A DNA stretch of 64,000 nucleotides, taken from Vicinamibacterales bacterium. GTDB lineage: Bacteria; Acidobacteriota; Vicinamibacteria; Vicinamibacterales; UBA2999. Positions 17,571 to 41,612 of this stretch are shown here, piece after piece (the stretch's first letter is position 1; each line of letters begins with the position of its first letter). A program made the position numbers and the translations under genes. The stretch lies in assembly GCA_050742535.1 (NCBI GenBank), contig JBOGIQ010000002.1, forward strand, positions 1,575-65,574, given 5' to 3'. The notes beneath the pieces are model-generated. The model searched no databases. It had not been told where the DNA came from and was given only the letters and a program-made list of their open reading frames with translations.

Positions 17571-18218
17571 TTGGCCCAAATTTTTCCCCCTTGGTGGAAC
17601 AAACTTCCGATCGTGGCGGCCGTCGTGGTCGTTCTCGGTCCCACACTCGCCACCGCGGGCGTCTGGTACTACTTTTCTCCGTGGTACACCGACGTCGGCT
17701 ACCGTCCCGTTCAGCCGGTCCCGTACAGCCATAAGCTCCACGTCGGCGAGCTTGGTCTCGATTGCCGGTACTGTCACGCCTCGGTTGAGACGTCTCCCGT
17801 CGTGAACCTCCCGCCGACGCGAACCTGCATGAACTGCCATCAGACCGTGATGAGGGACAGCGAGACGCTCGCGCCTATTCGGTCAAGCGCGCAGAGCGGA
17901 CGACCGATGCGCTGGATTCGGGTACACAACCTTCCCGACTACGCCTATTTCGCACACAACGCGCACGTGGCGGCGGGAATTGGCTGTGTCAGCTGCCACG
18001 GCCGCGTCGACGAGATGGAAGTGGTCACGCAGATGACGCCCCTCAGCATGAGCTGGTGCCTCGACTGCCATCGCAACCCCAGTCCGCAGAGACGGCCTGT
18101 CTCCGAGGTGACCAATATGAAGTGGACACCTCCGCGGGACGTCCAGACGCTCGCGGCGCGGCTCGACCGTGAACGACCGGTCAACCCGCCGACTGATTGT
18201 TCGGGGTGCCACCGGTGA
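17571..18218 (+). CDS. actA: ACIII ActA-like pentahaem cytochrome c (copy 1)
   Basis: Five CxxCH motifs (CRYCH, CMNCH, CVSCH, CLDCH, CSGCH) and an N-terminal TM. The TTG start is supported by alignment of (M)AQIFPP with the paralog MPQIFRR at 44274. Shared blocks: DCRYCH.SVETSP, PPT.TCMNCH, RP.RWIRVH.LPD. Confidence 0.9.
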   Translation: MAQIFPPWWNKLPIVAAVVVVLGPTLATAGVWYYFSPWYTDVGYRPVQPVPYSHKLHVGELGLDCRYCHASVETSPVVNLPPTRTCMNCHQTVMRDSETLAPIRSSAQSGRPMRWIRVHNLPDYAYFAHNAHVAAGIGCVSCHGRVDEMEVVTQMTPLSMSWCLDCHRNPSPQRRPVSEVTNMKWTPPRDVQTLAARLDRERPVNPPTDCSGCHR

Positions 18219-21217
18219 GTCGGACCTATTGGCGCAGCCTCGAGCAGATCGACGAACGCCCCGAATTCCGCACTTTTTTCGAGCGCGAGTTCCAGGAGGG
18301 TGCCTCGGAGCTTCCCGAAGGAATCACCCGGCGCGACATGATGATGCTCCTGGGCGCGTCGTTGTCGCTCGCCGGGCTCGCGGGGTGCCGGCGCCCCGCC
18401 GAAGAAATTGTTCCCTACGTCACGGCCCCTGAGGAGATCGTTCCTGGGATCCCCCGACAGTACGCGACGACCATGCCGTTCCGCCGGAGCGCTTACGGCC
18501 TGATCGTCGAGAGCCACGAAGGACGACCGACCAAGATCGAGGGCAATCCCTCGCATCCGTCGACCATGGGTGCCTCCAGCTCGCGCGTCCAGGCATCCGT
18601 ACTCGGCCTGTACGATCCCGACCGCTCGCAATCGGTCAGGTTGCGGGGCACGCGGAAGTCCTGGGACGAATTCGTGAAGGCGTGGGAGGAGCTCGCCAAA
18701 GCTCATGCTGCGGATGGCGGCGCCGGCCTTGCCGTCCTCTCAGAGTCCTTTTCTTCTCCCACGCTGGCGCGCCTGGTCTCCGAGCTTCGTGCCCGCTACC
18801 CTCGCTTGCAGTGGGCGACCTACGACGCCGTCAGCGACGAGAGCCGACTGGCGGGACTGCGGTCCGCCACGGGGCGCGACCTCGATGTGATGCTGCGGTT
18901 CGATCGAGCCGCGGTGATTCTCGCCCTCGACGCCGACCCGCTGCTCACCGACCCGGAGATGATCCGTCACGCGCGAGGTTTCGCGGAGGGAAGGCGCGCG
19001 GGAACCTCCGGTGGCGAGATGAATCGACTGTACGCGGTTGAAGGGGTCTACTCGCTGACAGGGGCGATGGCGGATCATCGGCTCCGTCTCGAGAGCCGGC
19101 AGATCGCCCCCTTTGTCGCGGCGCTCGCCGCGCGCCTTGCTCTGCCCGAAGCCGCGAGCCTGGCGGGAGCTGGCGTCCCGGGTCCGGACTCACGCTGGAT
19201 CGACGTCCTTGCCAAGGACCTTCTGGCGAACCGCGGCAAGAGTCTCATCGTGGCCGGGGAGCGCCAGCCCGCGGCCGTCCACGCCGCCGTGTGCGCCTTG
19301 AACACGTACCTCGGTAACGCAGGTAAGACGGTCAGCTATTACGAGACGAAGGACGCGGCGCTTCCGAGCGTGAGCTCGTTGAATGCGCTGGTTTCCGCGA
19401 TGAAGGGCGGCACGATCCAGACGCTCGTCGTCCTGGGCGGCAATCCTGTATTCGATGCCCCTGTCGATCTCGACTTCGCCTCGGCCATGGCGAAGGTTCC
19501 TCACTCAATCGTGCTCGGACACTCGGTCGACGAAACATCCTCCAGGGCGGAGTGGCATCTCCCGCGCGCTCACTATCTCGAGTCATGGGGAGACGCGCGC
19601 GCCGTTGGTGGCACGCTCAGCATCGTCCAGCCGCTCATCCTCCCGCTGTTCGGCGGACGAACCGCCGTTGAAGTGCTCGGGCTGATGGTCGCAGGCAAGG
19701 ATCGTCCAGGCTACGACATCGTGCGTGAGACCTGGAAACCGATCCTGGGCGACGGGTTCGACAGGAAGTGGAACCGCGTCCTGCATGACGGATTGCTGTC
19801 CGGCAGCGAGCTTCCGGAAGTTGTCCCCGATCTCACTGCGCAGTCGCTGGTGGAGCTTTCGCGCCTGATCGAGGCGGGACCGCCGCGTGGCCTGGAGATC
19901 GTGTTCCTCGCCTCTCCGTCGCTTCACGATGGCCGATTCGCCAACGACGGGTGGCTGCAGGAGCTTCCCGATCCCCTCACCAAGCTGACCTGGGACAACC
20001 CCGCCCTCGTCAGCCCGAAGACCGCCGAAACGTCCGGCCTTGCGGGCGGGGATTTGATCCGTCTCGACTACGCGGGCCGCTCGCTCGAACTCCCTGTCTG
20101 GATCGTTCCCGGCATGGCGGACGGCGTGGTGGCCCTCACGCTTGGCTATGGCCGTCAGCGCGCGGGGCGGGTCGGGTCCGGGGTGGGGTTCGACACGTTC
20201 ACTGTCCGGTCCTCCCGTGCGCCTGGCTTCGATAGCGACGTCAGACTTGCCAGGGTCGGGCGCACGTATCCGCTCTCGGCGACCCAGAACCACGGCAGCA
20301 TGGAGGGGCGACCCCTCGTTCGCGAGTCGACTCTCGCCGAGCTTCAATCGAAATCTGCTGCCGGCGCGGAGCGGGGCGAGAGCGAGCATGCGGGGGAGTC
20401 GAAAGGGGGAGGAATCCCCAGCCCGATCGGAGTCTTCGAAGAGGAAGCCCCACACTTCTCCCTCTGGAAGGAGCACACCTACGATCAGGGACACCAGTGG
20501 GGAATGACGATCGACTTGAACGCCTGCATCGGCTGCAACGCGTGCATGACGGCGTGTCAGAGCGAGAACAACGTGCCGGTCGTTGGGAAGAGGCAGGTCG
20601 CAAAGGGACGCGAGATGCACTGGATCCGGGTCGACCGGTACTTCTCCGGCGAGCCGTCGGGCCCTGAGGTCGTCTTCCAGCCCGTTCCCTGCATGCAGTG
20701 CGAGGATGCCCCTTGCGAACAGGTCTGTCCGGTCGCTGCGACCGTTCACGACGGGCAGGGCCTCAACGTGATGGTCTACAACCGGTGCATCGGAACCCGC
20801 TACTGCTCGAACAACTGTCCCTACAAGGTGCGCCGCTTCAATTTCTTCAACCTCACGAAGGACACGCCCGGCATCCTCAAGCTCGCGATGAACCCGGACG
20901 TCACGGTTCGTGCGCGAGGCGTGATGGAGAAGTGCACGTACTGCACGCAAAGGATCAATCGCACGAAGATCGATGCGAAGCTCGCGGGGCGCGAGCTTCG
21001 TGACGGCGACGTGAAAACGGCATGCCAGCAGGCGTGTCCCGCCTCGGCTATAGAGTTCGGAAATCTGCGGGACCAATCGAGCCGGGTCGTGAAGGCGAAG
21101 GCCGATCCACGCAACTACGCCCTCCTCGACGAGTTGAACACGAAGCCTCGGACGACGTATCTGGCCAAGGTGCGCAACCCGAATCCGGAGCTCGAGGAAG
21201 AGAGGCCCGTTGCATGA
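18215..21217 (+). CDS. actB: ACIII ActB-like subunit (molybdopterin-oxidoreductase-like domain fused to a 4-cluster ferredoxin domain), Tat leader (copy 1)
   Basis: Twin-arginine leader ITRRDMMMLLGASLSLAGLAGC. C-terminal FeS Cys clusters CIGCNACMTAC, CMQCEDAPCEQVCP, CIGTRYCSNNCP, CTYC...CQQACP. Collinear with the paralog at 44941. The start is taken as GTG 18215 (GTGA overlap with the actA stop); TTG 18197 is the alternative. Confidence 0.9.
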   Translation: MSRTYWRSLEQIDERPEFRTFFEREFQEGASELPEGITRRDMMMLLGASLSLAGLAGCRRPAEEIVPYVTAPEEIVPGIPRQYATTMPFRRSAYGLIVESHEGRPTKIEGNPSHPSTMGASSSRVQASVLGLYDPDRSQSVRLRGTRKSWDEFVKAWEELAKAHAADGGAGLAVLSESFSSPTLARLVSELRARYPRLQWATYDAVSDESRLAGLRSATGRDLDVMLRFDRAAVILALDADPLLTDPEMIRHARGFAEGRRAGTSGGEMNRLYAVEGVYSLTGAMADHRLRLESRQIAPFVAALAARLALPEAASLAGAGVPGPDSRWIDVLAKDLLANRGKSLIVAGERQPAAVHAAVCALNTYLGNAGKTVSYYETKDAALPSVSSLNALVSAMKGGTIQTLVVLGGNPVFDAPVDLDFASAMAKVPHSIVLGHSVDETSSRAEWHLPRAHYLESWGDARAVGGTLSIVQPLILPLFGGRTAVEVLGLMVAGKDRPGYDIVRETWKPILGDGFDRKWNRVLHDGLLSGSELPEVVPDLTAQSLVELSRLIEAGPPRGLEIVFLASPSLHDGRFANDGWLQELPDPLTKLTWDNPALVSPKTAETSGLAGGDLIRLDYAGRSLELPVWIVPGMADGVVALTLGYGRQRAGRVGSGVGFDTFTVRSSRAPGFDSDVRLARVGRTYPLSATQNHGSMEGRPLVRESTLAELQSKSAAGAERGESEHAGESKGGGIPSPIGVFEEEAPHFSLWKEHTYDQGHQWGMTIDLNACIGCNACMTACQSENNVPVVGKRQVAKGREMHWIRVDRYFSGEPSGPEVVFQPVPCMQCEDAPCEQVCPVAATVHDGQGLNVMVYNRCIGTRYCSNNCPYKVRRFNFFNLTKDTPGILKLAMNPDVTVRARGVMEKCTYCTQRINRTKIDAKLAGRELRDGDVKTACQQACPASAIEFGNLRDQSSRVVKAKADPRNYALLDELNTKPRTTYLAKVRNPNPELEEERPVA

Positions 21218-21897
21218 TCGCCCGCTCACGGGGTGTGCTGGGCGTGTTTATGCTCATCTCGCTTGTCGCCGTCAGCGGCTGCGTGCGCGGCTGCACGTCA
21301 AGCCGCCCTCCCATCCATCTCAACCCGAGCATGGACGACCAGCCGAAGGTCCGCCCGCAGGCGGCCAGCGATTTCTTCTACAACGGAGCGTCGATGCGAG
21401 AGCCCGTTCCGGGAACAATCCCGATCGGCGGGCTTCGGGAGGACGAGCCCTTCTTTACAGGCAAAGGAGCGGACGGCCAGTTCGTCGCGATGAGTCCCGT
21501 AGCCGTGGACGAGGCGCTTGTCGAGCGCGGCCGCCAGAGATACGGGATCTATTGCCAGCCTTGCCACGACGCTCGAGGGGACGGGAAGGGGATTCTGTTT
21601 CAGCGAGGCAACGTTCCCACCGCCACCTTCCACCAGGACAAGGTGCTGAAGTACCCGGACGGGCAAATCTTCGACGTCATCACGAACGGGGTAGGACTGA
21701 TGTCCGGGTACCGCTGGCCGATCCCTCCCGCGGACAGGTGGGCAATCGTCGCCTACGTGCGAACGATGCAGCGCGATCGGCAGGCACGCGCCGCGAGCGC
21801 ATCCGCCTCCGCTCCGGCTCCCGCCTCCGCTCCAGCTACGGCGGACAAGCCGGCGGACACGCCCGCCCCGCCTCCGCCGCCCAGCGGCGGCAAATGA
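21214..21897 (+). CDS. actE: ACIII ActE-like monohaem lipoprotein cytochrome c (copy 1)
   Basis: ATG at 21214 (ATGA overlap with the actB stop). Lipobox LVAVSGC, a single CQPCH, and DRWAIVAYVR, matching the paralog at 50031 (CAPCH, DRWAIAAYIR). Pro/Ala-rich tail. Confidence 0.85.
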   Translation: MIARSRGVLGVFMLISLVAVSGCVRGCTSSRPPIHLNPSMDDQPKVRPQAASDFFYNGASMREPVPGTIPIGGLREDEPFFTGKGADGQFVAMSPVAVDEALVERGRQRYGIYCQPCHDARGDGKGILFQRGNVPTATFHQDKVLKYPDGQIFDVITNGVGLMSGYRWPIPPADRWAIVAYVRTMQRDRQARAASASASAPAPASAPATADKPADTPAPPPPPSGGK

Positions 21898-21907
21898 GGC
21901 ACGCGCC

Positions 21908-23836
21908 GTGATGAAGAACCGCAAACTGCAGTTCCTTCTCGGTCCCGTCCTCGTCCTCGTGCTGTTCGGGGCGGTGGTCCAGATGGCCTCGTGGCTGATG
22001 AGCCGTGAGTACAAAGAGCCTTACGGAGCCCCTGCGGCGACGGTGGACTCCACGCCACGCGCCGCGGGACTGGCTGACGAAAAGGCTGACACAGAGGCGA
22101 GGGCCAAGGCGAAGCTGTACGAGGAGGCCGAATATCGGACCTTTCCAGTCGTTGGGAGCCGCGTAGCCATTTGGTCGGTCGCGCAGCTCCACCTGCTGTT
22201 CGCGGCGTTCGTCCTTGCCGTTCCGCTGTTCGCATTCATCATCGAGGTGATCGGCTACAAGACCGGAGATCTCCGATACGACAAGCTCGCGCACGAGTTC
22301 ACGAAGCTCCTGTCCGTCTCCTTCTCGCTCACGGCGACCTTCGGCGCGTTCCTGACGTTCATGCTGATCGCGCTGTACCCGAAGTTCACGAACTATCTGA
22401 TGAGCGTGTTCTCTCCCACGTTTCTCCCGTACGTACTGCTCTTCTTTGCCGAGGCGGGCTTCCTCTACACCTATTACTACGGCTGGGGGAAGTTCCATCC
22501 GCTGGTCCACCTTGGTTTAGGGCTCGGCCTGAACCTCGTGGGTACGGCGATCATGTTCATCGCCAATGCCTGGCTGACGTTCATGATGTCGCCGAACGGG
22601 GTCTCGGATACGGGGGCGGTGATCTCCGTCATGGACGCGGTCTACAACTTCACGTGGATGCCGATCAACGTCCATCGAGTGATCGCCAACGTCGCGTTCG
22701 GCGGATCGGTCGCGGCCGCCTACGCGGCCTTCAAGTTCCTCCAGGCGAAATCCGACGAGGAGCGCGCGCACTACGACTGGATGGGTTACATCGGGAACTT
22801 CGTCGCCATCAGCGCCTTCCTTCCGCTTCCCTTCGCCGGATACTGGCTCGCGAGTGAGATCTACGCCTATTCGCAGACGCTCGGGCTGACGATGATGGGC
22901 GGAGCCTTCTCATGGCTCTTCATCATTCAGGCCGTTCTGATCGGGAACCTCTTCCTCGCCGCCAACTTCTATCTCTGGCTCGGGATGGGACGTGTCGAGG
23001 AAGCGCAGCCGCTGCAGAAGTTCGTCAAGTACCTGCTCATCGCGATCGCGATCTGCTTCGCGGTCTGGGCGACACCGCGATCGATCATCGCGACGGTCTC
23101 CGAGCTCCGGGCGATGGGCGGATCGGCACACCCCGTTCTCGGCTTTCTCGGCGTCATGTCCGCCAAGAACACCGCCGTGAACATCCTGATCCTCACGACC
23201 TTCATGAGCTTCCTCCTCTATCGCCGGACAGGGAAGGTCGCCACGGTGCCGTGGGCGAAAACGGGCCATGCGGCGCAGCTCACGATCTTCGCCGCCGCCG
23301 CGATCTTCGTCATCTTCCTCGGCGTCTACGGGTACTTTGTCGAGGCGAGCGTCAGGATTGGCCTGTCGGTGCCCCAGGTCGGTTCGGTTCTGTTCGCGAT
23401 GGTGGCCATCACCGCGATCGACATCTTCCTCTTCCGCGGGGCGAAGACGGCCGCGGTGCGCTGGGGAAGGGTCCCGGCCAGTTCCCAGTACGTGCTGATT
23501 TTCATCGCGGTCACGTTCACGTGGCTCATGGGACTCATGGGCTACGTTCGCTCCGGGCTCCGCCAGCACTGGCATGTCTACGGCGTCATTCGGGACAACT
23601 CGCCCGACGCGTTCACGCCCACCCTCGGCTTCGCGACGCAGGTTGTCTCGGTGACCGTGCTGATCTTCTTCTTCCTGATCGGCTTCGTGTTCTGGCTCGC
23701 GAGCCTGCACGAGCGAGCCGAGCATCGAGCATATGCGCCATCACCCCAGAAAGGGCCGCACACGGGCGTGGACGTGGTTCTCGATGGCGCGCGCCTCTCC
23801 GCGCCGAACGTCGAGGGGCGCACCGGGCTGTCATGA
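21908..23836 (+). CDS. Cytochrome bd subunit I (CydA) superfamily homolog, ~14 TM, no Q-loop, no adjacent CydB
   Basis: 642 aa. Blocks alignable by eye to E. coli CydA: AQLHLLFAAFVLAVPL (H19 region), LLFFAEAGFLYTYYYGWGKF (conserved Glu region), FIANAWLTFMMSPNGV (ANGWMQNP-like), NVHRVIANVAFGGSVAAAYAAF (H186 region). There is an extra N-terminal TM and about 7 extra C-terminal hydrophobic segments. Confidence 0.8.
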   Translation: MMKNRKLQFLLGPVLVLVLFGAVVQMASWLMSREYKEPYGAPAATVDSTPRAAGLADEKADTEARAKAKLYEEAEYRTFPVVGSRVAIWSVAQLHLLFAAFVLAVPLFAFIIEVIGYKTGDLRYDKLAHEFTKLLSVSFSLTATFGAFLTFMLIALYPKFTNYLMSVFSPTFLPYVLLFFAEAGFLYTYYYGWGKFHPLVHLGLGLGLNLVGTAIMFIANAWLTFMMSPNGVSDTGAVISVMDAVYNFTWMPINVHRVIANVAFGGSVAAAYAAFKFLQAKSDEERAHYDWMGYIGNFVAISAFLPLPFAGYWLASEIYAYSQTLGLTMMGGAFSWLFIIQAVLIGNLFLAANFYLWLGMGRVEEAQPLQKFVKYLLIAIAICFAVWATPRSIIATVSELRAMGGSAHPVLGFLGVMSAKNTAVNILILTTFMSFLLYRRTGKVATVPWAKTGHAAQLTIFAAAAIFVIFLGVYGYFVEASVRIGLSVPQVGSVLFAMVAITAIDIFLFRGAKTAAVRWGRVPASSQYVLIFIAVTFTWLMGLMGYVRSGLRQHWHVYGVIRDNSPDAFTPTLGFATQVVSVTVLIFFFLIGFVFWLASLHERAEHRAYAPSPQKGPHTGVDVVLDGARLSAPNVEGRTGLS

Positions 23837-24516
23837 CAATCCCGCTCGTTGCCCGGATTGGCGTTCTCGTCCTCGCGACGACTGCGTTCTATGGCTACGT
23901 CGGCCAGATGGTGCCTCAAAGCGAAGTTCAGCCTCCCGAGGAGATCGCCATCAGAGCCGACCTCACGACGCCAGAGATGGTCGAGATCGGCCGCGAGATC
24001 GCTGACGGTAAGGGCCTGTGCCGGACCTGCCACACGATCGGCCAGAGCGGTGCGCTCCGGTTCCCCGACCTCGCTGGAGTCGCCGGTCGCGCGGCGGAGC
24101 GCGTCCAGGGCCTGAGCGCTCTCGACTACTTCGCCCAATCGCTGTACGAACCTGACGCCTTCGTTGTGCCGGGATTCAATCCGGGGATGCCGACGATCAA
24201 CAGGCCCCCGATTGGCCTGACCGATCAGGAGATCCTCTGCGTGATCGCGTACCTCCAGTCTCTTGGCGGCACGCCGACGGTCACGCTCCAGACGAGCCAC
24301 CGCTACTACGCCGCGCCGGCCACGCCGGGTGCGGCGCCGCCTGGCGCCGCGGCAGGCGCACCCGTTACGACGCCGGCCGCACCGGGCGTACCGGGTACCA
24401 CGCCGGCCGCTCCGGGCGCTCCGCAGAAACCCGAGCCTGGCCAGCCGTTGCCTCTTACCCGGCCACCAGCCGAGCCGGCTCCCGCGGCCCCTGCGAGAGG
24501 AGCGGTCACACGATGA
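23833..24516 (+). CDS. Membrane-anchored monohaem cytochrome c with Pro/Ala-rich tail
   Basis: ATG 23833 (ATGA overlap with the upstream stop). N-terminal TM IGVLVLATTAFYGYV, a single CRTCH, and a downstream GMP Met-ligand candidate. Only the distal 227 codons of track ORF 22912-24516 are credible. Confidence 0.8.
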   Translation: MTIPLVARIGVLVLATTAFYGYVGQMVPQSEVQPPEEIAIRADLTTPEMVEIGREIADGKGLCRTCHTIGQSGALRFPDLAGVAGRAAERVQGLSALDYFAQSLYEPDAFVVPGFNPGMPTINRPPIGLTDQEILCVIAYLQSLGGTPTVTLQTSHRYYAAPATPGAAPPGAAAGAPVTTPAAPGVPGTTPAAPGAPQKPEPGQPLPLTRPPAEPAPAAPARGAVTR

Positions 24517-25331
24517 ACATCCTCGTCGTCGTCGCGGTTGTTGCCGCGTTCGGGCTTCTCCGCTTTCGTCGGGCCAACCTGCTGTTGTGGGCCATCGCCT
24601 GGTGGGCGGGGATTTACGTCCTGCTCCGATTCGGATTCACGATCCCGATTCCCGCCTCCGTCATCTCGATCTACATGGGAATTGTCTCTCTCGCGATCCT
24701 GGCGTACATGTCTTCCAGTCAGGAACGCCGCGAAGAGGTCTCCCGCCCGCTCATCCGGTTGATGACCGAGAAGCGGTACACCGCGCTCCTCGCCGCAACG
24801 GCGATTGCCATACCGGCGCTCGCAGCCGCGAACGTCTACGTCAAGTTGAATGTCCCCCTCGAGCCTCCGTTCTTTCCGCGAACGATCCATCCGGCATCGC
24901 CTTCCGAGATCAGGGTTCACGACAAGACGATCCCGATCGACGCTGGAGACAACCCCTTCAGACAACTCGAACGATCGAATCCGGAAGAGTTCCGCAGGCA
25001 CGTAGAAAACGGGCGCCAGGTCTACTACCGGAACTGCGTCTTCTGCCACGGCGACAACCTGGGGGGCAACGGCATGTTCGCGCATGCGTTGAACCCGATC
25101 CCGACCAATTTCGCCGACGGGCAGACGCTCCCGAATCTCAGCGAGACGTTCCTGTTCTGGCGAATCTCCAAGGGAGGACCGGGGATGCCCGACGAAGGGG
25201 CGCCATGGGACACGGCCATGCCCGCCTGGGAGAAGTTCCTCAAAGAAGAAGAGATGTGGGACGTGATTCTCTTTCTCTACGATTTCACAGGCCAGAGGCC
25301 CGCTGTGCGCGCCCTGGAGGCCGCGCACTGA
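24513..25331 (+). CDS. Polytopic (about 4 TM) membrane protein with C-terminal monohaem cytochrome c domain
   Basis: 272 aa, ATGA overlap at 24513. Four N-terminal hydrophobic segments, then CVFCH and GGPGMP...MPAW typical of class I cytochrome c. Confidence 0.8.
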   Translation: MNILVVVAVVAAFGLLRFRRANLLLWAIAWWAGIYVLLRFGFTIPIPASVISIYMGIVSLAILAYMSSSQERREEVSRPLIRLMTEKRYTALLAATAIAIPALAAANVYVKLNVPLEPPFFPRTIHPASPSEIRVHDKTIPIDAGDNPFRQLERSNPEEFRRHVENGRQVYYRNCVFCHGDNLGGNGMFAHALNPIPTNFADGQTLPNLSETFLFWRISKGGPGMPDEGAPWDTAMPAWEKFLKEEEMWDVILFLYDFTGQRPAVRALEAAH

Positions 25332-27034
25332 TGCGACCCCGACTGATGTCGCGCGCGTGTTTCGCGGCTCTGGTCGCCTGGTTGTGCGCCGGGATGGGAT
25401 CCGTGCGCCCGCAGGGGCAGGGTCCCGACGTCGGCACCGAAGCGCAGCGGGAGTCGGGCAAGAACCTGTATCTCAAGTACTGCTCGCAGTGCCACGGCGA
25501 CAAAGGGGACGCCGCGGGCTACGCTACACCGCATCTGCTCCCCCGGCCCCGCGACTTCACGCAGGGCAAGTTCAAGGTTCGCACGACCCCGAGCGGAGCG
25601 CTCCCGAGCCATCAGGATCTCGTCAACATCATCAGGCTGGGCATGCCCTATACCTCGATGCCCGCCTGGCCCGACTTGTCGGACGGGGAGGTGTCGGATC
25701 TCGCCTACTTCCTGACCACGTTCTCCGCCGACTTCTCGAACCCTGAGCGTGTGCCGCCGCCGATGGAGCTCCCGGGTGCGCCGAGCTCGACGAACGAGTC
25801 CATCGAGCTCGGAAAGAAGCTTTACGTGGATACCGGCTGCATCAAGTGCCACGGCAACCTCGGTCGGGGCGATGGACCATCGGCCCCGACGCTGACGGAC
25901 GACCTGGGGCAGCCAATACGGGCAGCAGACCTCACGCAGAGCTGGACCTTCCGGGGAGGATCCTCCCGCGAGGATATTTTCCGGACGATGACCGCGGGGT
26001 TCAACGGCACGCCAATGCCGTCGTTTGTCGACAGCCTCTCGACAGAGCAGCGGTGGGCGATTACGGACTATATAGCCTCGCTCTCGGGGAGCAACGGGCC
26101 TGGCTATACCAATCTCGTCATTGCGAAGCCGGTCCAGGATCCAATCGATTTGGAGAAAGGGGCTGCAAGCTTCGAATCTGCTCCGGTGGCCCGCTTCCCG
26201 ATCATCGGACAGATTACGGAGCCCGGACGCTCGTTTCATCCTCCCGCGACCTCCATGACGGTTCAGGCCATCTACGACGCCGAGTCGATCGCCCTTCTCG
26301 TTCGATGGCACGACATGAGCGCGGACAAGGCTGGAAAGAACGGGCCGACGCTTCCCGTGCCGCCGGAGGAGGAAGAGTCGGCGCCGGCAGGTGCGCAGAA
26401 GGCCGGAGAGAGCCCGTTTGGCGATGCGGAACTCGCGCCAGCTCAGAAGACCGAAACGGACCCCTTCGCCGAGGAAGCACCAGCCGTCCCGGCATCCGAG
26501 TTCTCCGACGCGGTCTCGATTCAGGTTCCCTCGCAGGTGCCGGCCGGCTCTCGCAAGCCCTATTTCATTCTTGGTGACACCCAGAGCTCGGTGGATCTCT
26601 GGTTCTTCGACCTGGCCCGCAACGGACCCCTTCAGTTCACCGGCCGGGGAAGCGCGGACGTCTCGCCCAACGACACGGGCGATCTCACCGGTGTCGCGAG
26701 CTACGACCAGGGACAATGGTCGGCCATCTTCAAACGGCCCCTTCGCGCCAGCTCGGGTGCCCCGTTGTCGCCCGGGCAGTTCATGCCGGTCGCCTTTTCG
26801 GTCTGGGACGGGTTCTCCCGCGAGCGTGGCAACCGGCGTGGTCTCACGGTCTGGCAGTCTCTCTACCTCGAGCCGGAAGCGGTTCCGTCGGTGATCGGTC
26901 CGATGGTGAGGATTGCCCTGATCATTCTTGCTATCGAACTCATCGTCATCGGCTTGGTGCGCTGGCGTTACGGCTCACGCGCCCGCGGGGCGCTCGGTGG
27001 TGACCCAAGTCAACCGGCAGCCACGCGAGCGTGA
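25331..27034 (+). CDS. Dihaem cytochrome c fused to an EB_dh (ethylbenzene dehydrogenase gamma / DOMON-like haem-binding) domain, C-terminal TM anchor
   Basis: ATG 25331 (TGATG overlap). Signal peptide; CSQCH and CIKCH. C-terminal half shows the EB_dh-like pattern (IYDAESIALLVRWHD..., WSAIFKRPL..., VAFSVWDGFSRERGNRRGLTVW). Final TM IALIILAIELIVIGLV. The upstream 356 codons of track ORF 24263-27034 are an out-of-frame artefact. Confidence 0.75.
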   Translation: MRPRLMSRACFAALVAWLCAGMGSVRPQGQGPDVGTEAQRESGKNLYLKYCSQCHGDKGDAAGYATPHLLPRPRDFTQGKFKVRTTPSGALPSHQDLVNIIRLGMPYTSMPAWPDLSDGEVSDLAYFLTTFSADFSNPERVPPPMELPGAPSSTNESIELGKKLYVDTGCIKCHGNLGRGDGPSAPTLTDDLGQPIRAADLTQSWTFRGGSSREDIFRTMTAGFNGTPMPSFVDSLSTEQRWAITDYIASLSGSNGPGYTNLVIAKPVQDPIDLEKGAASFESAPVARFPIIGQITEPGRSFHPPATSMTVQAIYDAESIALLVRWHDMSADKAGKNGPTLPVPPEEEESAPAGAQKAGESPFGDAELAPAQKTETDPFAEEAPAVPASEFSDAVSIQVPSQVPAGSRKPYFILGDTQSSVDLWFFDLARNGPLQFTGRGSADVSPNDTGDLTGVASYDQGQWSAIFKRPLRASSGAPLSPGQFMPVAFSVWDGFSRERGNRRGLTVWQSLYLEPEAVPSVIGPMVRIALIILAIELIVIGLVRWRYGSRARGALGGDPSQPAATRA

Positions 27035-27060
27035 GCTGTTGCGGGCAATCCGGAGGAGTC

Positions 27061-29921: not shown

Positions 29922-29984
29922 ACGATTTCGTTCGCGCTTCGATTCGCGTACCATCGGCTCGACACATTTCCGGAGGCGTCTCGC

Positions 29985-30350: not shown

Positions 30351-30433
30351 GATTTGGGTCCTGCTCTCGGCTCAAGACTGAGGGCGCGGCCGACAAGAAC
30401 GATTAACAGGCTCGGTGTAAGCTACGCGGCATC

Positions 30434-31318
30434 GTGAAGCGCTATCACGACATCGTCGGCGACGGAGGGTCGAGAGTCCTCGAGCAGGTTGCCGCGCAGC
30501 GGACCCGCATCACGGAGGGGCTCGCCGAGGTGCGCCATCTCGTGGCCGTGGGGTCCGGCAAGGGGGGAGTCGGCAAGAGCACGTTGACTCTGCATCTCGC
30601 GGGCGCTCTGCGGGCCCGGGGGCTGCGGATTGCGATCCTGGACGCGGACTTCAACGGCCCCTCACAGGCGCGCATGGCCGGTGTCCTGGGGGCCTTGTTC
30701 GTGCCTGGCACCCGCAAGGTCGCGCTCCCGCGGACCAGGAACGGGATCGCGGTGTTCTCGATGGGCTCGCTGATTCCGGAGTCGCAAGCGCTCGAGTTCG
30801 AAAGCGCGGCGGACGGTGAGTCTCATACGTGGCGTGCCACGAGGGAGTTCGCTCTCCTCGGCGAGGTCCTCGCGTCCTTCGAGTGGGGAGCGCTCGATCT
30901 GCTGATGTTCGACCTGCCGCCGGGAGCGGAGCGTACCGTCCAGTACGCCGATTTTCTCGGGCCCCGGACGTCATTCCTGCTCGTGACGATCCCTTCCGAC
31001 GTGGCACGGGGCGTGGTCGCGCGCTCGGCAGCAGCGCTGTCGAAGGGACGCAATCGCCTCCTCGGTTACGTCGAGAATATGAGCGGCTACTACTGTCGCG
31101 ACTGCGACGCGATCAAGCCCCTCTTCGATACGGGGCAGGACAGCCCGTCGCACCTTGAGATCCCCTGCCTCGGTACCGTCCCATTCGATCCGGAGCTTGC
31201 GCGGCACTGCGATCGGGGGATCCCGCTCGCGGAACGGACCGAAACGCCCGTTGGCAGGGCCCTGGAGCGTGTTGCGCAGCAACTTCTGGAAAGCCTCGAA
31301 TTGGAGCCGCCAAGATGA
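30434..31318 (+). CDS. Mrp/NBP35/ApbC-family P-loop ATPase (Fe-S cluster carrier-like)
   Basis: Deviant Walker A VGSGKGGVGKSTLTLHLA and the ENMS..C..C motif (VENMSGYYCRDCDAIKPLF). GTG start. Confidence 0.85.
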   Translation: MKRYHDIVGDGGSRVLEQVAAQRTRITEGLAEVRHLVAVGSGKGGVGKSTLTLHLAGALRARGLRIAILDADFNGPSQARMAGVLGALFVPGTRKVALPRTRNGIAVFSMGSLIPESQALEFESAADGESHTWRATREFALLGEVLASFEWGALDLLMFDLPPGAERTVQYADFLGPRTSFLLVTIPSDVARGVVARSAAALSKGRNRLLGYVENMSGYYCRDCDAIKPLFDTGQDSPSHLEIPCLGTVPFDPELARHCDRGIPLAERTETPVGRALERVAQQLLESLELEPPR

Positions 31319-31755
31319 AGTTTCTCTGCGTCCCTTGCGACAGCCCGATGAAGCTGCAAACCGTCGGGCCGCCCGAACGGGGCTCGCTGTCGATCGTCTA
31401 TGCGTGTCCTGAGTGCGGCTACGAGATGGCCATGCTCACGAACGCGTACGAGACACAGGTCGTCCAGTCTCTCGGCGTGCGGGTCGGTGTAGAGAGCGGC
31501 AGTGGGAGCGCGGCCGAACCGAACAAGTGCCCGTTCCCGGCGATGATCCCGTCGACGGAGGGTGCCCGACCCGGGCAGACTGGCGAGCCGATCCCCGTCC
31601 GGTGGACTGCCGCCGCGGAAGCCCGGCTCGCGAACATTCCTGAGTTCGTTCGTCCGATGGCGCGAACCGGCATCGAGAGATTTGCTCGCGAAAGGGGAGC
31701 CCTGGAAGTAGACGAGACGATCCTCGACGCGGCCCGTGACTTCTTCGGCATGTAG
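31315..31755 (+). CDS. Zinc-ribbon protein with C-terminal PCP_red domain
   Basis: 146 aa, ATGA overlap with the Mrp stop. CVPC...CPEC ribbon. C-terminal VRWTAAAEARLANIPEFVRPMARTGIERFARERGALEVDETILDAARDFFG closely resembles the BchB/ChlB C-terminal motif (W..EAE..L..IPFFVRGK.RRNTE.FAR..G). Confidence 0.8.
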   Translation: MKFLCVPCDSPMKLQTVGPPERGSLSIVYACPECGYEMAMLTNAYETQVVQSLGVRVGVESGSGSAAEPNKCPFPAMIPSTEGARPGQTGEPIPVRWTAAAEARLANIPEFVRPMARTGIERFARERGALEVDETILDAARDFFGM

Positions 31756-31764
31756 GCGATCGCG

Positions 31765-33168
31765 ATGAACTTGGAAGGATTTGCCCGTCCCTACGTCGTT
31801 TCCTGGAACCTCACCTACCGCTGCAACCTCGCCTGCGAGCACTGCTATCTCGACGCTGGCCCGACGCGTCTGGTCGGCACGGAGAACTTTGCCGATCGGA
31901 GCGAGCTCGGCACCGAGGAATGCTTCAGGGTCATTGACGACATCGCCGCATTTGCGCCTGAATGCCTCACGATCCTGACCGGCGGCGAGCCGCTCTTACG
32001 GCGCGACATACTCGAAATCGTCCAGCGCGCCGCGGAGCGTGGACTGTGGGTCGTCGTCGGCACCAACGGCGTGCGCATCACGGAGAACGTGGCGCGGCGC
32101 CTGGCGGAGGCCGGAGCACGGGGCCTCTCCCTTTCCCTCGACGCACTCGATGCCGACAGTCACGACCGTTTCAGGAAGGTGCGTGGCGCCTGGCACAACA
32201 CCGTGGAGGGCGCGGAGATCCTCAATCGGACCGGGCTCCCCTTCATCGTCCAGACCACTGCGGGCTCGCACAATATCGGCGCGCTCGAAGCGATTGCCGA
32301 TTTCGCGCACGATCGCCTCGCCGCCAAAGTGTGGAACCTCTACTTCCTGGTGCCGACGGGGCGCGGGCAGTTCGTCTCCGACATGACCCCAGCGCAGTAC
32401 GACGAGGTGCTCGCCTCTCTCTACCGAATCCAGCAGAAGTACAACCGCCGGATGCTCGTGAACGCGAAGTGCGCACCGCACTACATCAAGACCGTGCTGG
32501 AGAATGCCCACCTTCGCCAAGGCTCCGGCGGGCAAGCCGGCGATGAAACCGATTCGACGTCCCCCATCAGGACCTACTCGGGAGGGGCCGGCGGGTGCCC
32601 GGCGGGGACGCACTATATGGGTATACGTCCGAACGGGGATGTCACGCCCTGCCCATACCTCCCGGTCTTCGCCGGCAACCTTCGCCGGTCGCCGCTCGCC
32701 GAGCTCTGGACGTCATCGGAGCTGTTCGCCAATATTCGCCGTCGCACCTCGCTCGGCGGGCGATGCGGGGAGTGCGAGATGAACGGACACTGCGGGGGCT
32801 GCCGCGCCAGGGCCTACGGGATGACCGCCGATCTGATGGCCGAGGATCCCCTATGTACCCACACCCCAGGGAAGTTCGCCGGGTCCCCGCTCCTGGTGCT
32901 TCGCGGCCCAAACGGCTCTCGTCCGCCCTCGCCCCTTCGGGGCTACGGCGACACGCCGCCGTTGATCGAGTACGGCGGCGAATCGCCGCCGACTATCGCC
33001 TGGGATGAAGCAGCCGCCACCCGCATGAAGAACGTCCCCGCGTTCGTCCGCGGAATGGTCATCAGGGCCGTCGAGGAATCCTGTCGCAAGGAAGGGCTGG
33101 ATCGTGTAACCGTCGAGGAGCTCGAACGGATCCGCGCACGGATGCCAACCCCAAAGCTCTTCAGATAG
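31765..33168 (+). CDS. Radical SAM / SPASM-domain enzyme (NirJ/AhbC/AhbD-like) with C-terminal PCP_red domain
   Basis: CNLACEHCY radical-SAM cluster motif, TGGEPLLRRD, GTNG. SPASM Cys pattern GCPAG...GDVTPCPY...CGECEMNGHCGGCRARAY...DPLC. C-terminal IAWDEAAATRMKNVPAFVRGMVIRAVEESCRKEGLDRVTVEELERIRARMP. Confidence 0.85.
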   Translation: MNLEGFARPYVVSWNLTYRCNLACEHCYLDAGPTRLVGTENFADRSELGTEECFRVIDDIAAFAPECLTILTGGEPLLRRDILEIVQRAAERGLWVVVGTNGVRITENVARRLAEAGARGLSLSLDALDADSHDRFRKVRGAWHNTVEGAEILNRTGLPFIVQTTAGSHNIGALEAIADFAHDRLAAKVWNLYFLVPTGRGQFVSDMTPAQYDEVLASLYRIQQKYNRRMLVNAKCAPHYIKTVLENAHLRQGSGGQAGDETDSTSPIRTYSGGAGGCPAGTHYMGIRPNGDVTPCPYLPVFAGNLRRSPLAELWTSSELFANIRRRTSLGGRCGECEMNGHCGGCRARAYGMTADLMAEDPLCTHTPGKFAGSPLLVLRGPNGSRPPSPLRGYGDTPPLIEYGGESPPTIAWDEAAATRMKNVPAFVRGMVIRAVEESCRKEGLDRVTVEELERIRARMPTPKLFR

Positions 33169-33237: not shown

Positions 33238-33447
33238 ATGGAGATCTCGACTGGGCTCTGGATCGCGTTCTGGCTGTGGTTGGCGCTGTTCGTTCCGTAC
33301 GCGATTTGGTACATCCGTCGGGGGAGAGCGCACGGCCATACCTGGTTCACGTGGTGGAAGCCTCGCGGTCACTCCGACATTGGCCCGGACATGGGATTCC
33401 GGCAGACTCGACCGGGCCGGGACGACGCACGAGGATCTCGTTACTGA
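33238..33447 (+). CDS. Small Trp-rich membrane protein (hypothetical)
   Basis: 69 aa. Strong SD GGGAGGAG ends 7 nt before the ATG. N-terminal hydrophobic segment LWIAFWLWLALFVPYAIWYI followed by HGHTWFTWWKPRGH. Codon third positions are mostly G/C in the first two thirds. No homology recognised. Confidence 0.4.
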   Translation: MEISTGLWIAFWLWLALFVPYAIWYIRRGRAHGHTWFTWWKPRGHSDIGPDMGFRQTRPGRDDARGSRY

Positions 33448-37460: not shown

Positions 37461-37479
37461 TCGGCTGTTCTCCGGATCG

Positions 37480-38347: not shown

Positions 38348-39556
38348 TCAGGCGTTTTCGAACGCCAGCGACTCGGCCAGCCGTGGATCGCGGAGAGGCA
38401 CGAGCGCCTGCCGTCGCATCAGCCAGCTCGCCGCCGCCACGAAGCACCCGCCGATGGCGACGAACGCGGCCACGTCCAGTACCGACACGCGCAGCCCTTC
38501 GGGATGCAGCGTCGGCATCACCTGCCAGTAGAGATCCAGGTAATGCATCGCGAGAAGCCACGCTCCGCCGACGGCCAGCGTCGCTCCATTCCGCTTCACG
38601 GTCCTTCCCATCAGGTAGAAGAACGGCGCCGCGAAATGCCCCGCCATCAGGAAGAGCGAGACCGTCATCCAGGACCCTTCCATCCGCGCTCTGTACCAAG
38701 TCGTTTCCTCGGGAAGGTTGGCGTACCAAATGAGGAAGAACTGGGAGAAGGCGATATAGGTCCAGAACACCGTGAACGCGAAGAGAAGCTTTCCGACATC
38801 GTGCAGGTGTTCGGGGCTGATGACTGTATCGAGCAGCCCGGCCCGGCGCATCGCCGCGGCAACGACCGAGAGAAGCGCGATGAACCCAACGAAGGAACCC
38901 GCGAAGAAATACACCCCGAACATGGTCGAGTACCAGTGCGGGGTGAGCGACATGATCCAGTCGACCGAGGCGAAGGTCTGGGTCAGCGCGAGGACGATGA
39001 TCGCCGGCCCCGCGAGGCGGCGCAGCCGGGCCGATATCCCGGGATCGCCGGTGGCGTCCTGACCGCGCGAACCACGGTAGTACAGAACGGCAATAAAGGA
39101 CCAGATTGTGAAGAAGAGCGCCGCCCGGATCAGGAAGAACGGGACGTTGAGGTATGGCGCCTTCCATTGAAGCAGCGGATCCTCGGCGACGGCCTCGGCG
39201 TGCGACCACTCATACAAATCATGTAGGCCGAGAATCAACGGAAGGAAGAGGGCCGCCATCACCGGGAGCATTGCGAAGGTCGTCTCCCCAATCCGGCGCA
39301 GCACGATCCCCCACCCTCCCTGGGCCGCATACTGGATCAAGACGAAGAAGAGCGCTCCGAGAGCCAGGCTCAGAAAAAACAGAAACGACACGAGCCACGA
39401 GAAGAAGAACTGCTTCGGATTTGCGATCCCCAGAATCGCGGAGGCCGCAATGCCCACCAGGGCGAAGACGAGGGCAATGACTGGAATGCGGTTCCACGGG
39501 TGCCCCGGCGGGATCGTGGCCTGCTCGGGCCGCAGCGAAACGCGTTCGGGGATCAT
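38348..39556 (-). CDS. actF: ACIII ActF-like polytopic membrane subunit (copy 1)
   Basis: Start at ATG 39556 (MIPERV, ATGA overlap with the actD stop). Collinear with the paralog at 50641 (FFFSWLVSFLFFLSLALG vs FFRSWLIAFLLFLGISLG; SVDWIMSLTPHWYSTMFG vs GIDWIMSINPHWYSTLFG). The upstream 104 codons of the track ORF are rejected. Confidence 0.85.
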   Translation of the reverse strand: MIPERVSLRPEQATIPPGHPWNRIPVIALVFALVGIAASAILGIANPKQFFFSWLVSFLFFLSLALGALFFVLIQYAAQGGWGIVLRRIGETTFAMLPVMAALFLPLILGLHDLYEWSHAEAVAEDPLLQWKAPYLNVPFFLIRAALFFTIWSFIAVLYYRGSRGQDATGDPGISARLRRLAGPAIIVLALTQTFASVDWIMSLTPHWYSTMFGVYFFAGSFVGFIALLSVVAAAMRRAGLLDTVISPEHLHDVGKLLFAFTVFWTYIAFSQFFLIWYANLPEETTWYRARMEGSWMTVSLFLMAGHFAAPFFYLMGRTVKRNGATLAVGGAWLLAMHYLDLYWQVMPTLHPEGLRVSVLDVAAFVAIGGCFVAAASWLMRRQALVPLRDPRLAESLAFENA

Positions 39557-40113
39557 TCGGACTCCACGAGCTCGACGCTTCGTGCGCCCAGCGACTCCAG
39601 CAGCTTCCCCGTGGACTCCGGATCGAACCGCGGATCCCACGACTCGATCGAGATGAAGAAGGCGTCGTCGGTCACGCGCTCGAAGACCTTGGATCGGAAG
39701 AGCGGATGGTGGTGCATGGGAAGCCGGTTCAAGCCGAGCATGCCGAAGACGGCGCCCAGCGCAGCGAAGAGAACTCCGAGTTCGAACGTGACCGGAATCA
39801 TGGCGGGCCAGGCGAAGTACGGCTTGCCGCTGATCACCAGGGGCTGGGCGCTGGCGTGGACCCACCACTGCAGGAGGAACCCGAGCGCCGCCCCCGTCAA
39901 TCCAGTGGCGAGGACGATCCAGGGAAGCGGGGAGCGCCGGAGTCCCATTGCTTTCTCGAGGCCGTGGACCGGGAAGGGGCTATGGGCGTCCCACCGTGTG
40001 AAGCCCGCGTCGCGCACCCGTTCGCACGCGTGATAGAGGTCCGCCGGCGTCGCGAATCCGGCGAGGATTCCGTAGTTGGGCCCTTTCGGAAGCTGGGGCA
40101 TGAGGAGCGGCAT
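39553..40113 (-). CDS. actD: ACIII ActD-like subunit (DUF3341) (copy 1)
   Basis: 186 aa. GILAGFATPADLYHACERVRDAGFTRWDAHSPFPVHGL plus two TMs. Paralog of 49472-50023. Confidence 0.85.
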   Translation of the reverse strand: MPLLMPQLPKGPNYGILAGFATPADLYHACERVRDAGFTRWDAHSPFPVHGLEKAMGLRRSPLPWIVLATGLTGAALGFLLQWWVHASAQPLVISGKPYFAWPAMIPVTFELGVLFAALGAVFGMLGLNRLPMHHHPLFRSKVFERVTDDAFFISIESWDPRFDPESTGKLLESLGARSVELVESE

Positions 40114-41612
40114 CAGGAGGCTCCCTCGGGAGCGGGCTCCCCATGCGCTGGCAGCGCGTCTCGGTGGTGCTTGCGCTCGCGTTCGGGCCCGGAATGCGGA
40201 TCGGCCTGCGGCAGAACGGTCTTCACTTCGGACGTCGCCACCATCGGAACGAAGCGCACGAACAGGCAGAACATCGTGAAGAAGAGCCCGAAGCTCCCGA
40301 GCAGGGTCGACACGTCCCAGATCGTAGGAGTGAAGTGCCCCCAGGACGAGGGGAGGAAGTCACGGTGCAGCGACGTCGTGATGATCACGAACCGCTCGAA
40401 CCACATCCCGATGTTGATGATGATCGACATGACGAACAGGATCGGGATGCTCGTGCGCGCCTTCTTGAACCAGAAAACCTGGGGGCTGAGCACGTTGCAC
40501 GAGACCATGATCCAGTAGGCCCACGCGTACGGTCCGCCCGCGCGGTTGAGGAACGTGAAGAACTCGTAGGGGTTCCCGCTGTACCAGGCTGTGAAGAATT
40601 CCGTGGCATAGGCGAAGCCGACCATAGACCCGGTGACGAGCGTGATCTTCGCCATGTAGTCGAAGTGCCGGATGGTGATGATGTGCTCGAGGTGGAACGC
40701 CTTGCGGCAGATCACCATGAGCGTCAGAACCATGGCGAACCCGGAGAAGATCGCGCCCGCGACGAAGTACGGCGGGAAGATCGTCGTGTGCCATCCCGGG
40801 AGGAGGGAAACCGCGAAATCCATCGAGACGATCGAATGAACCGAGAGGACCAGCGGCGTTGCCAGGGCTGCGAGGACGAGATAGGCGCTTTCGTAGTGGT
40901 GCCACTGGCGCACGGAACCCCGCCATCCGAGGGCGAAGAAACCGTAGATGAACTTCCGGGCGTTGGTCTTCGCCCGATCCCGCATCATCGCCAGATCCGG
41001 AATCAAGCCGACGTACCAGAACAGGACCGAGACCGTTCCGTACACGCTGACCGCAAAGACGTCCCAGAGGAGAGGGCTCCTGAAATTGGGCCACATACCC
41101 ATCTGGTTCGGGAGCGGGAACATCCAGTAGGCGACCCAGACCCGTCCGACGTGGATGCCCGGGAACAGCAGGGCGCACATGACGGCGAAGATCGTCATCG
41201 CCTCCGCCGCGCGGTTAATCGAGGTGCGCCATTTCTGCCGGAAGAGGAAGAGGATCGCCGAGATCAGCGTCCCGGCGTGTCCGATCCCGATCCAGAAGAC
41301 GAAGTTCGTGATGTCCCACGACCAGCCGACTGGGACGTTGAGTCCCCAGATGCCAATCCCCTCCCAGAACAGCCACGAGACCGCGACGCCAAGAAGACCG
41401 AGGAGGGCGACGGAAGGGATGAAAAAGAGCCACCAGCCGAGCGGTGTCTTCCGTTCGACGGGCTCCGCGACAGCCTCTGTGATCGAGTGGAAATCCGGCG
41501 AGCGCAGGATCAGCGTAGGGTGGCCCGCGACAGGATTGTCCAGCAGTTCAGCTTCTGTCTGGGCCAAACGTCTCACCGCTCCACTTTGTGAAAAGTTGCG
41601 CGTTTGTATCAT
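40113..41612 (-). CDS. actC: ACIII ActC-like NrfD-family quinol-interacting membrane subunit (copy 1)
   Basis: 499 aa. [54 protein letters not shown] is nearly identical in pattern to the paralog at 48045. Confidence 0.9.

Follow-up and report, generated by a model that had tools for sequence, protein, structure and literature searches.

A second alternative complex III in two halves

Can a respiratory complex still be one enzyme when its genes lie in two halves on opposite strands? In many bacteria, alternative complex III (ACIII) takes the place of the bc1 complex; how it is coupled and where its electrons leave are debated. The question arises from a 64,000-nucleotide stretch of contig JBOGIQ010000002.1 (Vicinamibacteria, Acidobacteriota; GC content 62-66%), which we call the window; all positions are window positions. 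It holds an unsplit actABCDEF set (set 0) and a second set divided into actA-actB-actE on the plus strand (17571-21897) and actC-actD-actF on the minus strand (41612-38348), with 16.5 kb between them. We name the genes of the second set A1, B1, E1, C2, D2 and F2.

Our preferred reading, to which we give a probability of about 0.65, is that A1-B1-E1 and C2-D2-F2 are the two modules of one additional ACIII, assembled in trans from convergent operons. Assembly in trans was one option in the initial annotation of the window. It is favoured by a common affinity of all subunits to the ACIII of Rhodothermus marinus, by the agreement of the two halves in 20 of 20 loci, by absences that are scattered over the tree, by deletion scars and by a conserved quinol site.

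The act genes of the window are as follows.

17571-18218, plus strand: actA1, first gene of its operon; pentahaem cytochrome c with an N-terminal membrane helix (Pfam Cytochrome_C7; QrcA-like in NCBIfam)
18215-21217, plus strand: actB1; GTG start overlapping the actA1 stop by 4 nt (GTGA), with an alternative TTG start at 18197
21214-21897, plus strand: actE1; cytochrome c lipoprotein with one haem, overlapping actB1 by ATGA
41612-40113, minus strand: actC2; quinol-binding subunit of the NrfD family
40113-39553, minus strand: actD2; two-helix membrane subunit (Pfam ActD, E = 2e-65)
39556-38348, minus strand: actF2; NrfD-fold membrane subunit without a quinol site (no Pfam hit)
44274-51861, plus strand: the unsplit actABCDEF (Pfam), in the order A-B-C-D-E-F

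When the halves of the second set are summed, each of the six subunits is present in one copy. Open reading frames (ORFs), Pfam and NCBIfam searches and matches to R. marinus bear out the gene content and order that the initial annotation had read from the letters, with ABE on the plus strand and CDF on the minus strand. The same holds for its view that a complete second ACIII is divided exactly into ABE and CDF, each half beside a different oxidase, and, by ORFs and Pfam, for the canonical order of the unsplit set. A single act gene cluster is typical of the ACIII family, though not a property of the enzyme itself, and the second set lacks it.

The ATGA overlaps described for actB1/actE1 and actD2/actF2 are real. 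They are seen in the junction sequences (...GCATGATC... and ...GAATGATC..., respectively), and they recur in 6 of 6 and 22 of 28 related loci. The start of actF2 is the ATG at 39556; the longest ORF (38348-39868) would overlap actD2.

All six proteins have the features of their R. marinus counterparts (PDB 6F0K). ActA1 has five CxxCH motifs behind an N-terminal hydrophobic helix and matches R. marinus ActA (6f0k_A) over its full length with 239.5 bits. ActB1 (983 bits to 6f0k_B) combines molybdopterin-like and iron-sulfur (FeS) domains, which NCBIfam describes as QrcC/QrcB-like, with a variant twin-arginine translocation signal (TIGR04519). Its RR motif and lipobox are present, and its 15 cysteines follow the same 4+4+3+4 pattern as those of ActB in the unsplit set (ActB0). 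In the family, the molybdopterin-like domain of ActB holds no cofactor, and the FeS clusters are one [3Fe-4S] and three [4Fe-4S]. ActE1 (181 bits to 6f0k_E) has one CxxCH and a lipobox, VSGC, at residue 20. In the membrane half, a residue-by-residue alignment of ActC2 with 6f0k_C (693-697 bits) shows that the equivalents of P136, H139, L166, D169, S245, H247, V250 and D253 are kept. E111 of ActD2 aligns with Glu122 of 6f0k_D, and the tyrosine of an FWTY motif in ActF2 (321-326 bits to 6f0k_F) aligns with Tyr284. In R. marinus, His139, Asp169 and Asp253 are quinol-site residues, and ActD Glu122 and ActF Tyr284 are proposed coupling residues (PMC5928083).

That neither half should function alone had been argued beforehand, and the published structure agrees: ActCDF carry no redox cofactors, and the quinol site of ActC passes electrons to the first FeS cluster (FeS1) of ActB, 10-12 Å away (PMC5928083). 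Given that the quinol site of ActC2 is conserved and that its membrane module is cofactor-less, an ActB partner is implied.

Each half opens a longer operon. The actA-B-E operon runs on into a cytochrome bd-like oxidase module of the OR-N type, and the actC-D-F operon runs on into the genes of a putative cupredoxin and of an aa3 oxidase of the A1 type. They converge on a common block of probable cofactor-maturation genes, where a radical SAM gene ends at 33168 and coxII at 33481. We refer to the whole arrangement as the island.

Common ancestry of the two halves

The second and unsplit copies are 51% (A), 50% (B), 43% (E), 60% (C), 44% (D) and 43% (F) identical. Each set was used as one concatenated query against all PDB sequences, and the best bit score was taken for each subunit. 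The scores are listed below.

ActA: second set, R. marinus 239.5, best Chloroflexi 198; unsplit set, R. marinus 198, best Chloroflexi 261
ActB: second set, R. marinus 983, best Chloroflexi 955; unsplit set, R. marinus 922, best Chloroflexi 1121
ActC: second set, R. marinus 693, best Chloroflexi 571; unsplit set, R. marinus 565, best Chloroflexi 626
ActD: second set, R. marinus 184, best Chloroflexi 160; unsplit set, R. marinus 143, best Chloroflexi 205
ActE: second set, R. marinus 181, best Chloroflexi 96; unsplit set, R. marinus 143, best Chloroflexi 148
ActF: second set, R. marinus 321, best Chloroflexi 254.5; unsplit set, R. marinus 226, best Chloroflexi 229.5

The R. marinus ACIII is the top match for all six subunits of the second set. 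For the unsplit set the top match is Chloroflexus or Roseiflexus, with near ties for E and F. The preference is reciprocal, so differences in evolutionary rate alone cannot explain it. These scores indicate a single ACIII as the ancestor of both A1-B1-E1 and C2-D2-F2, from a lineage other than that of the resident unsplit set.

Conservation and joint loss in related genomes

One genome per GTDB species was scanned with the central Mrp-like gene of the island as the anchor, and the proteins of the window were mapped onto the 80 loci returned. Essentially all of these loci are from Vicinamibacteria or Acidobacteriota genome bins. Vicinamibacteria are among the most abundant lineages in soils. 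Four contigs with the island at 78-87% identity bear the labels Acidimicrobiia, Candidatus Eisenbacteria, Gemmatimonadaceae and Bifidobacteriaceae (L022, L055, L059 and L079, respectively); these are probably mis-binned Vicinamibacteria contigs, not cases of transfer.

The split layout is widespread. Homologues of the bd-like protein and of ActF2, of which databases hold more than 7000 each, led to long metagenomic contigs on which both clusters recur, convergent as in the window. The layout occurs in dozens of Vicinamibacteria species and in many independent short-read and long-read assemblies, multi-megabase contigs included. In 58 of 75 loci, the radical SAM gene is followed by the convergent coxII. 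ActF2 adjoins the cupredoxin in 33 loci, of which 26 show all of F2, D2 and C2 and the others are cut by the end of the locus. In 20 loci, the gene immediately upstream of the bd-like one is actE1. The initial annotation had suggested a comparison of synteny and had named an intact second actABCDEF in relatives as a sign of an artefact. None was present at the island locus among the related loci mapped, and the split layout recurs, so it is no assembly artefact.

Across dozens of species, the region of the second set retains 75-92% amino acid identity. Uncorrected ratios of nonsynonymous to synonymous change (pN/pS), calculated against ten relatives, are 0.36 for E1, 0.21 for C2, 0.26 for D2 and 0.23 for F2, and 0.20 for CoxI of the island. 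The second set is under purifying selection.

The two halves are also present or absent together. Both ends of the island are visible in 20 loci: ActE1 and ActF2 are both present in 16 and both absent in four (L012, L052, L071 and L074), and no locus has one without the other. Fisher's exact test gives about 2e-4 for this table if the loci are independent, which they are not fully. L016, in which actCDF is lost, is not counted as a fifth double absence, as its upstream region is not visible. A metagenome scan with the central gene of the island yielded contigs that were mostly short; both ends were visible in none of its loci, and none was discordant.

Some of the absences have left traces. 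Just upstream of the bd-like gene, L012 (1761-1888) and L071 (1339-1425) still have the first ~30 codons of actA1, and L012 also retains a 16-residue fragment of actE1. These scars therefore reflect secondary deletion in both loci. In L052 and L074, hemQ directly follows the cupredoxin gene, and actCDF is absent. Neighbour-joining trees of island proteins place L012 with L034, which has both halves, and L071 with L021, which has actF2; L052 and L074 are deep. Further losses of actCDF occurred in L016, L033, L073 and L072/L084. On the tree, double absence thus falls in at least three separate places, and loss of actCDF in about six. Repeated joint loss is expected if each half needs the other to be of use. 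In the four loci that lack act genes, both oxidases persist; therefore, the act halves are not structural parts of either oxidase.

Weighing the alternatives

Several points weigh against assembly in trans. The test of common origin consists of bit scores to four solved complexes, not full phylogenies. The presence/absence table is anchored on one island gene and is blind to act genes relocated elsewhere in the genome, and the losses are judged independent from neighbour-joining trees of island genes that carry no support values. Tight translational links from actE1 to the bd-like gene, and from actF2 to the cupredoxin and cox genes, would also be expected under independent recruitment of the two halves. 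Finally, cross-assembly with the unsplit set is possible, given copies that are 43-60% identical and the proposal that Chloroflexus shares its ActCDF.

This last point can be extended to a general exchange of modules, in which A1B1E1 would sit on C0D0F0, C2D2F2 would carry A0B0E0, or both, and the hybrids would be tuned to different acceptors. There is a precedent in Chloroflexus aurantiacus, whose Cr operon is actABEG and whose Cp-encoded ActCDF have been proposed for both complexes (PMC9316378), and in our window the sets lie only 3-27 kb apart. However, unlike Chloroflexus, the window has a dedicated second CDF set. This set shares its ancestry with the second ABE set and vanishes together with it, whereas single losses would be expected if modules were exchanged. 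We therefore regard exchange with the unsplit ACIII as unlikely, although occasional hybrids may form.

A different possibility is that the halves never meet. ABE would then be an input arm docking on the bd-like oxidase, and CDF would be an accessory module, membrane or proton-translocating, of the aa3 oxidase and its cupredoxin. Each half does come first in the operon of "its" oxidase, where genes overlap by 4 nt or are separated by 10 nt, and both adjacencies are conserved (E1 with the bd-like gene in 20 loci, F2 with the cupredoxin in 33). One protein cluster (P0069; 841 aa, four members, on a 162-kb contig) even reads as a fusion of ActE to the bd-like protein. We set this cluster aside as Rosetta-stone evidence, since it stands alone and its C terminus is garbled and looks frameshifted; it is probably an indel in a long-read assembly and not a true fusion. 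The joint losses also argue against separate recruitment, since the halves are lost together and never singly, as do their shared ancestry and the intact state of both oxidases in genomes without act genes. Moreover, ActCDF have no redox cofactors, and ActC2 has a complete quinol site, for which the only known acceptor is FeS1 of ActB (PMC5928083). Separate recruitment, the other option of the initial annotation, thus appears quite improbable.

The idea that the second set is a decaying duplicate, or that its split is an artefact of assembly or rearrangement, could appeal to the frameshifted genes in some long-read bins (L016, L071), but is ruled out by intact ORFs with all functional motifs, by the recurrence of the layout in independent short- and long-read assemblies, by the 75-92% identity and pN/pS of 0.2-0.36 that mark purifying selection, and by more than 7000 homologues each of the bd-like protein and ActF2.

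Oxidases beside the two halves

The bd-like protein, the cupredoxin and the A1-type aa3 oxidase had been named as neighbours of the act halves, and these identities held up in family searches, residue alignments and motifs, for the cupredoxin at the level of its copper-ligand pattern. The module that follows actE1 consists of four genes.

21908-23836, plus strand: bd-like CydA homologue of 642 aa, 10 nt past actE1 (Pfam Cyt_bd_oxida_I, E = 5e-21)
23833-24516, plus strand: monohaem cytochrome c (one CxxCH; 4-nt overlap)
24513-25331, plus strand: membrane-anchored monohaem cytochrome c (one CxxCH; 4-nt overlap)
25328-27034, plus strand: fusion of a dihaem cytochrome c with an EbdC-like haem b domain (two CxxCH; 4-nt overlap)

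The three cytochrome genes match Pfam Cytochrom_C, Cytochrome_CBB3 and EB_dh and NCBIfam DMSO_red_II_gam and EbdC. Alignment of the bd-like protein to solved CydA structures is restricted to the N-terminal four-helix haem core, in which H95 and H256 fall on the haem-ligand histidines, as equivalents of E. coli H19 and H186. Past residue ~320 there is no significant alignment with solved CydA chains, and a crude hydropathy scan gives 12 hydrophobic peaks. Published OR-N2 proteins lack the Q-loop and have ~14 transmembrane helices (10.1101/2021.01.16.426971). The bd-like protein is classed as OR-N type and probably belongs to OR-N2, an assignment by operon content and length, not by phylogeny.

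In L074 (2284-6895), a far more divergent bd-like module occupies the same slot: its CydA homologue is 42% identical and its cytochromes are 47-56% identical to those of the window, while the flanking genes are 79-87% identical and both act halves are absent. This suggests that the whole oxidase module was replaced.

Downstream of actF2, on the minus strand, lie the following genes.

38202-37480, minus strand: secreted amicyanin-like cupredoxin, between actF2 and coxI
37460-35697, minus strand: CoxI (Pfam COX1), with the AHPEVY motif of the A1 type (D-channel glutamate)
35697-35104, minus strand: CoxIII (Pfam COX3)
35094-34768, minus strand: CoxIV (Pfam COX4_pro)
about 34574-34287, minus strand: small membrane protein in the A1-type cox operon
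34311-33481, minus strand: CoxII (CoxII2; Pfam COX2), with a CuA site and no haem c domain

The CuA site of CoxII2, CAQLCGLGHARM, follows the pattern C-x-Q-x-C-x3-H-x2-M, and the protein has no CxxCH. We considered whether this aa3 could be a quinol oxidase that uses ActC directly; the full CuA site rules this out.

In the cupredoxin, H132, H135, C170, H173 and M176 are invariant among 34 homologues, which carry the Joint Genome Institute label plastocyanin. A profile of the family covers residues 17-102 of 105 of amicyanin among PDB sequences and matches its four copper ligands, but with an E-value of 0.015. Pfam sees only the CarboxypepD_reg part, and an AlphaFold model from a shallow alignment has a mean predicted local distance difference test score of 49.5. 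The copper site (HNIH ... CDVHPWM) lies inside a protein whose N- and C-terminal strands match the CarboxypepD_reg beta-sandwich, which is an unusual domain arrangement. The cupredoxin is kept in genomes without act genes, so it belongs primarily to the oxidase.

The unsplit set is followed by a different oxidase, an A2-type caa3, with these genes.

52423-53331, plus strand: SCO1 (Pfam)
53338-54336, plus strand: CoxII with a haem c domain (CuA plus CxxCH)
54299-55957, plus strand: CoxI of the A2 type (SHPAVY)

Superoperons of ACIII with an A2-type caa3 oxidase are known in Acidobacteria (PMC8407424), and the unsplit set with its caa3 genes is such a superoperon.

Proposed electron routes

From the sequence, we infer that the two halves are co-expressed and assemble physically, and that electrons take the following path. 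The ABE module would be a periplasmic electron wire, and the CDF module would oxidize quinol and translocate protons in the membrane; together, the six subunits would act as a quinol:cytochrome c (or cupredoxin) oxidoreductase. Menaquinol would be oxidized at the ActC2 site, from which electrons would pass to the first FeS cluster of ActB1, through the five haems of ActA1 and on to ActE1. One exit would lead from ActE1 to the OR-N-type bd-like oxidase and the cytochromes c encoded directly after actE1. The other would lead to the A1-type aa3 oxidase, directly or via the cupredoxin encoded between actF2 and coxI.

The split ACIII probably feeds both neighbouring oxidases, because both need a periplasmic one-electron donor: CoxII2 lacks a haem c domain and OR-N proteins lack a quinol site. 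The cupredoxin route to aa3 is proposed by analogy with electron transfer from ACIII to auracyanin in Chloroflexi. Each half may be co-regulated with its neighbouring oxidase, as far as operon structure indicates. Scans with promoter and terminator consensus sequences over both operons and the convergent gap gave nothing usefully placed above shuffled expectation, and no common regulatory motif upstream of both operons was seen by eye.

More tentatively, the complex could be a branched hub, in which the ActE1 haem serves the bd-like module, the ActA1 wire serves aa3, possibly via the cupredoxin, and the modules are tuned separately. If so, one quinol-oxidizing, proton-translocating complex would serve two chemically different oxygen reductases, and the long-sought donor of the OR-N-type bd-like oxidase would be identified.

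Genes between and beside the oxidase clusters

The block between the two oxidases, and the genes flanking the minus-strand cluster, are as follows.

27031-29070, plus strand: protein with Usp and two PCP_red copies (Pfam); translationally coupled, conserved in related loci
29067-29921, plus strand: GNAT acetyltransferase (Pfam); translationally coupled, conserved in related loci
29985-30350: small ORF upstream of the Mrp-like gene, for a secreted protein of ~121 aa
30434-31318, plus strand: Mrp/ApbC-like FeS carrier ATPase (Pfam; NCBIfam MrpORP, 2.5e-45, below the curated cut-off)
31315-31755, plus strand: small PCP_red protein of 146 aa (Pfam)
31765-33168, plus strand: AhbD/NirJ2-like radical SAM/SPASM protein fused to PCP_red (NCBIfam rSAM_ahbD_hemeb, 1.2e-89, below the curated cut-off)
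about 33238-33445: small ORF for a hydrophobic protein of ~69 aa, in the gap where the radical SAM gene and coxII converge
41649-42437, minus strand: HemQ/ChdC-like protein of the chlorite dismutase family (Pfam Chlor_dismutase, 1e-54), heading the minus-strand cluster
42711-44108: ORF of 465 aa between the hemQ-like gene and the unsplit actA, with no Pfam or NCBIfam match

The PCP_red domain, otherwise the C-terminal domain of protochlorophyllide reductase subunit B, occurs in three different proteins between the oxidase clusters (27031-33168). Together with the Mrp-like and GNAT proteins, the PCP_red proteins look like a system that matures haem or a cofactor for one of the oxidases. For the trio of Mrp-like, PCP_red and radical SAM genes, a role in cofactor maturation is probable. 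In L008, L030, L041, L066 and L067 (~10001-13000) the trio stands alone: the 10 kb to each side contain neither bd-like nor cox genes. Since this is so in several Vicinamibacteria genomes, the trio is separable as a unit and does not always belong to the island. The HemQ/ChdC-like protein scores under the NCBIfam cut-offs for the haem synthase. Its gene is at one side of the island, and the AhbD-like radical SAM gene, for another terminal enzyme of haem b synthesis, is at the other.

Comparison with known systems

In the literature searched, we found no description of a split ACIII in Vicinamibacteria or Acidobacteriota. In particular, we did not find described a dedicated and complete second ACIII that is split by module, with each module heading the operon of a different oxygen reductase and the operons convergent on shared genes of probable maturation function, nor such a split conserved across a whole abundant soil lineage, with co-loss tying the halves together. 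The arrangement is likely to matter for the respiration of a large share of soil bacteria across oxygen gradients.

The initial annotation had called the locus an unusual modular reshuffling. The word unusual should be softened, as the cut follows a known module boundary, and the actABEG operon of Chloroflexus is a precedent. Refojo et al. reportedly drew this boundary, between an electron-transfer module, ActABE, and a membrane/quinol module, ActCDF. The cryo-EM structure of ACIII bears it out, with two modules, ActABE(H) and ActCDF (PMC5928083). Separate encoding of the wire and the membrane pump in our window would be genomic evidence that the modules are made and regulated as separate units.

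R. marinus ACIII has the same six subunits and is the nearest solved relative of every subunit of the second set. The two agree in the ActC quinol site, in ActD Glu122 and ActF Tyr284, in the FeS cysteines and in the numbers of haems. In R. marinus, however, one actABCDEF(G) cluster is followed by a caa3 oxidase, whereas here two convergent operons are cut at the module boundary, and the oxidase linked to CDF is an aa3 that lacks a haem c domain and comes with a cupredoxin.

The second act operon of Chloroflexus aurantiacus, actABEG, lacks actCDF, which has been read as an exchange of ActABE units on a membrane module, and proteomics suggested that one ActCDF set serves both complexes (PMC9316378). 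As in our window, an ABE-only act operon is present in a genome that also holds a complete act operon. In contrast, the ActCDF set of Chloroflexus is single and supposedly shared, while the window has two (C2D2F2 and C0D0F0), the second set being co-inherited with the second ActABE.

In Nitrospirales, actABCDE is directly upstream of an OR-N5 bd-like oxidase, which implies ACIII as its donor (PMC12342949). Both systems place ACIII genes directly upstream of a bd-like oxygen reductase without a quinol site. The Nitrospirales cluster, however, retains actC and actD, has actB split into B1 and B2, lacks actF and leads to an OR-N5 oxidase (CydAA'). In our window, the act genes ahead of the single OR-N2-like CydA of 642 aa are A, B and E only, and this CydA comes with cytochromes c and an EbdC-like subunit.

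OR-N family members lack a quinol site, and their electron donor is described as unknown (Murali, Gennis and Hemp 2021; bioRxiv 10.1101/2021.01.16.426971). OR-N2 operons encode several cytochromes c as well as a protein homologous to the gamma subunit of ethylbenzene dehydrogenase (10.1101/2021.01.16.426971). The bd-like module resembles them in its long CydA homologue with an N-terminal haem core and in the cytochromes c and EbdC-like subunit of its operon, but upstream ActABE genes are not mentioned in the published description. The gene order of the window points to ACIII as the electron donor for this bd-like oxidase.

Auracyanin, a blue copper protein of small size, accepts electrons from ACIII in Chloroflexi (PMC8552683). 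Similarly, an amicyanin-like cupredoxin is encoded beside act genes here, but it lies within a CarboxypepD_reg-type beta-sandwich and accompanies an aa3 oxidase rather than a photosynthetic reaction centre.

In Flavobacterium johnsoniae, ActE is dispensable for electron transfer to aa3, and electrons have been proposed to branch off where ActA meets ActE, towards a second, unidentified acceptor (PMC8552683). The position of actE1 directly before the second oxidase of the island fits this branch-point idea.

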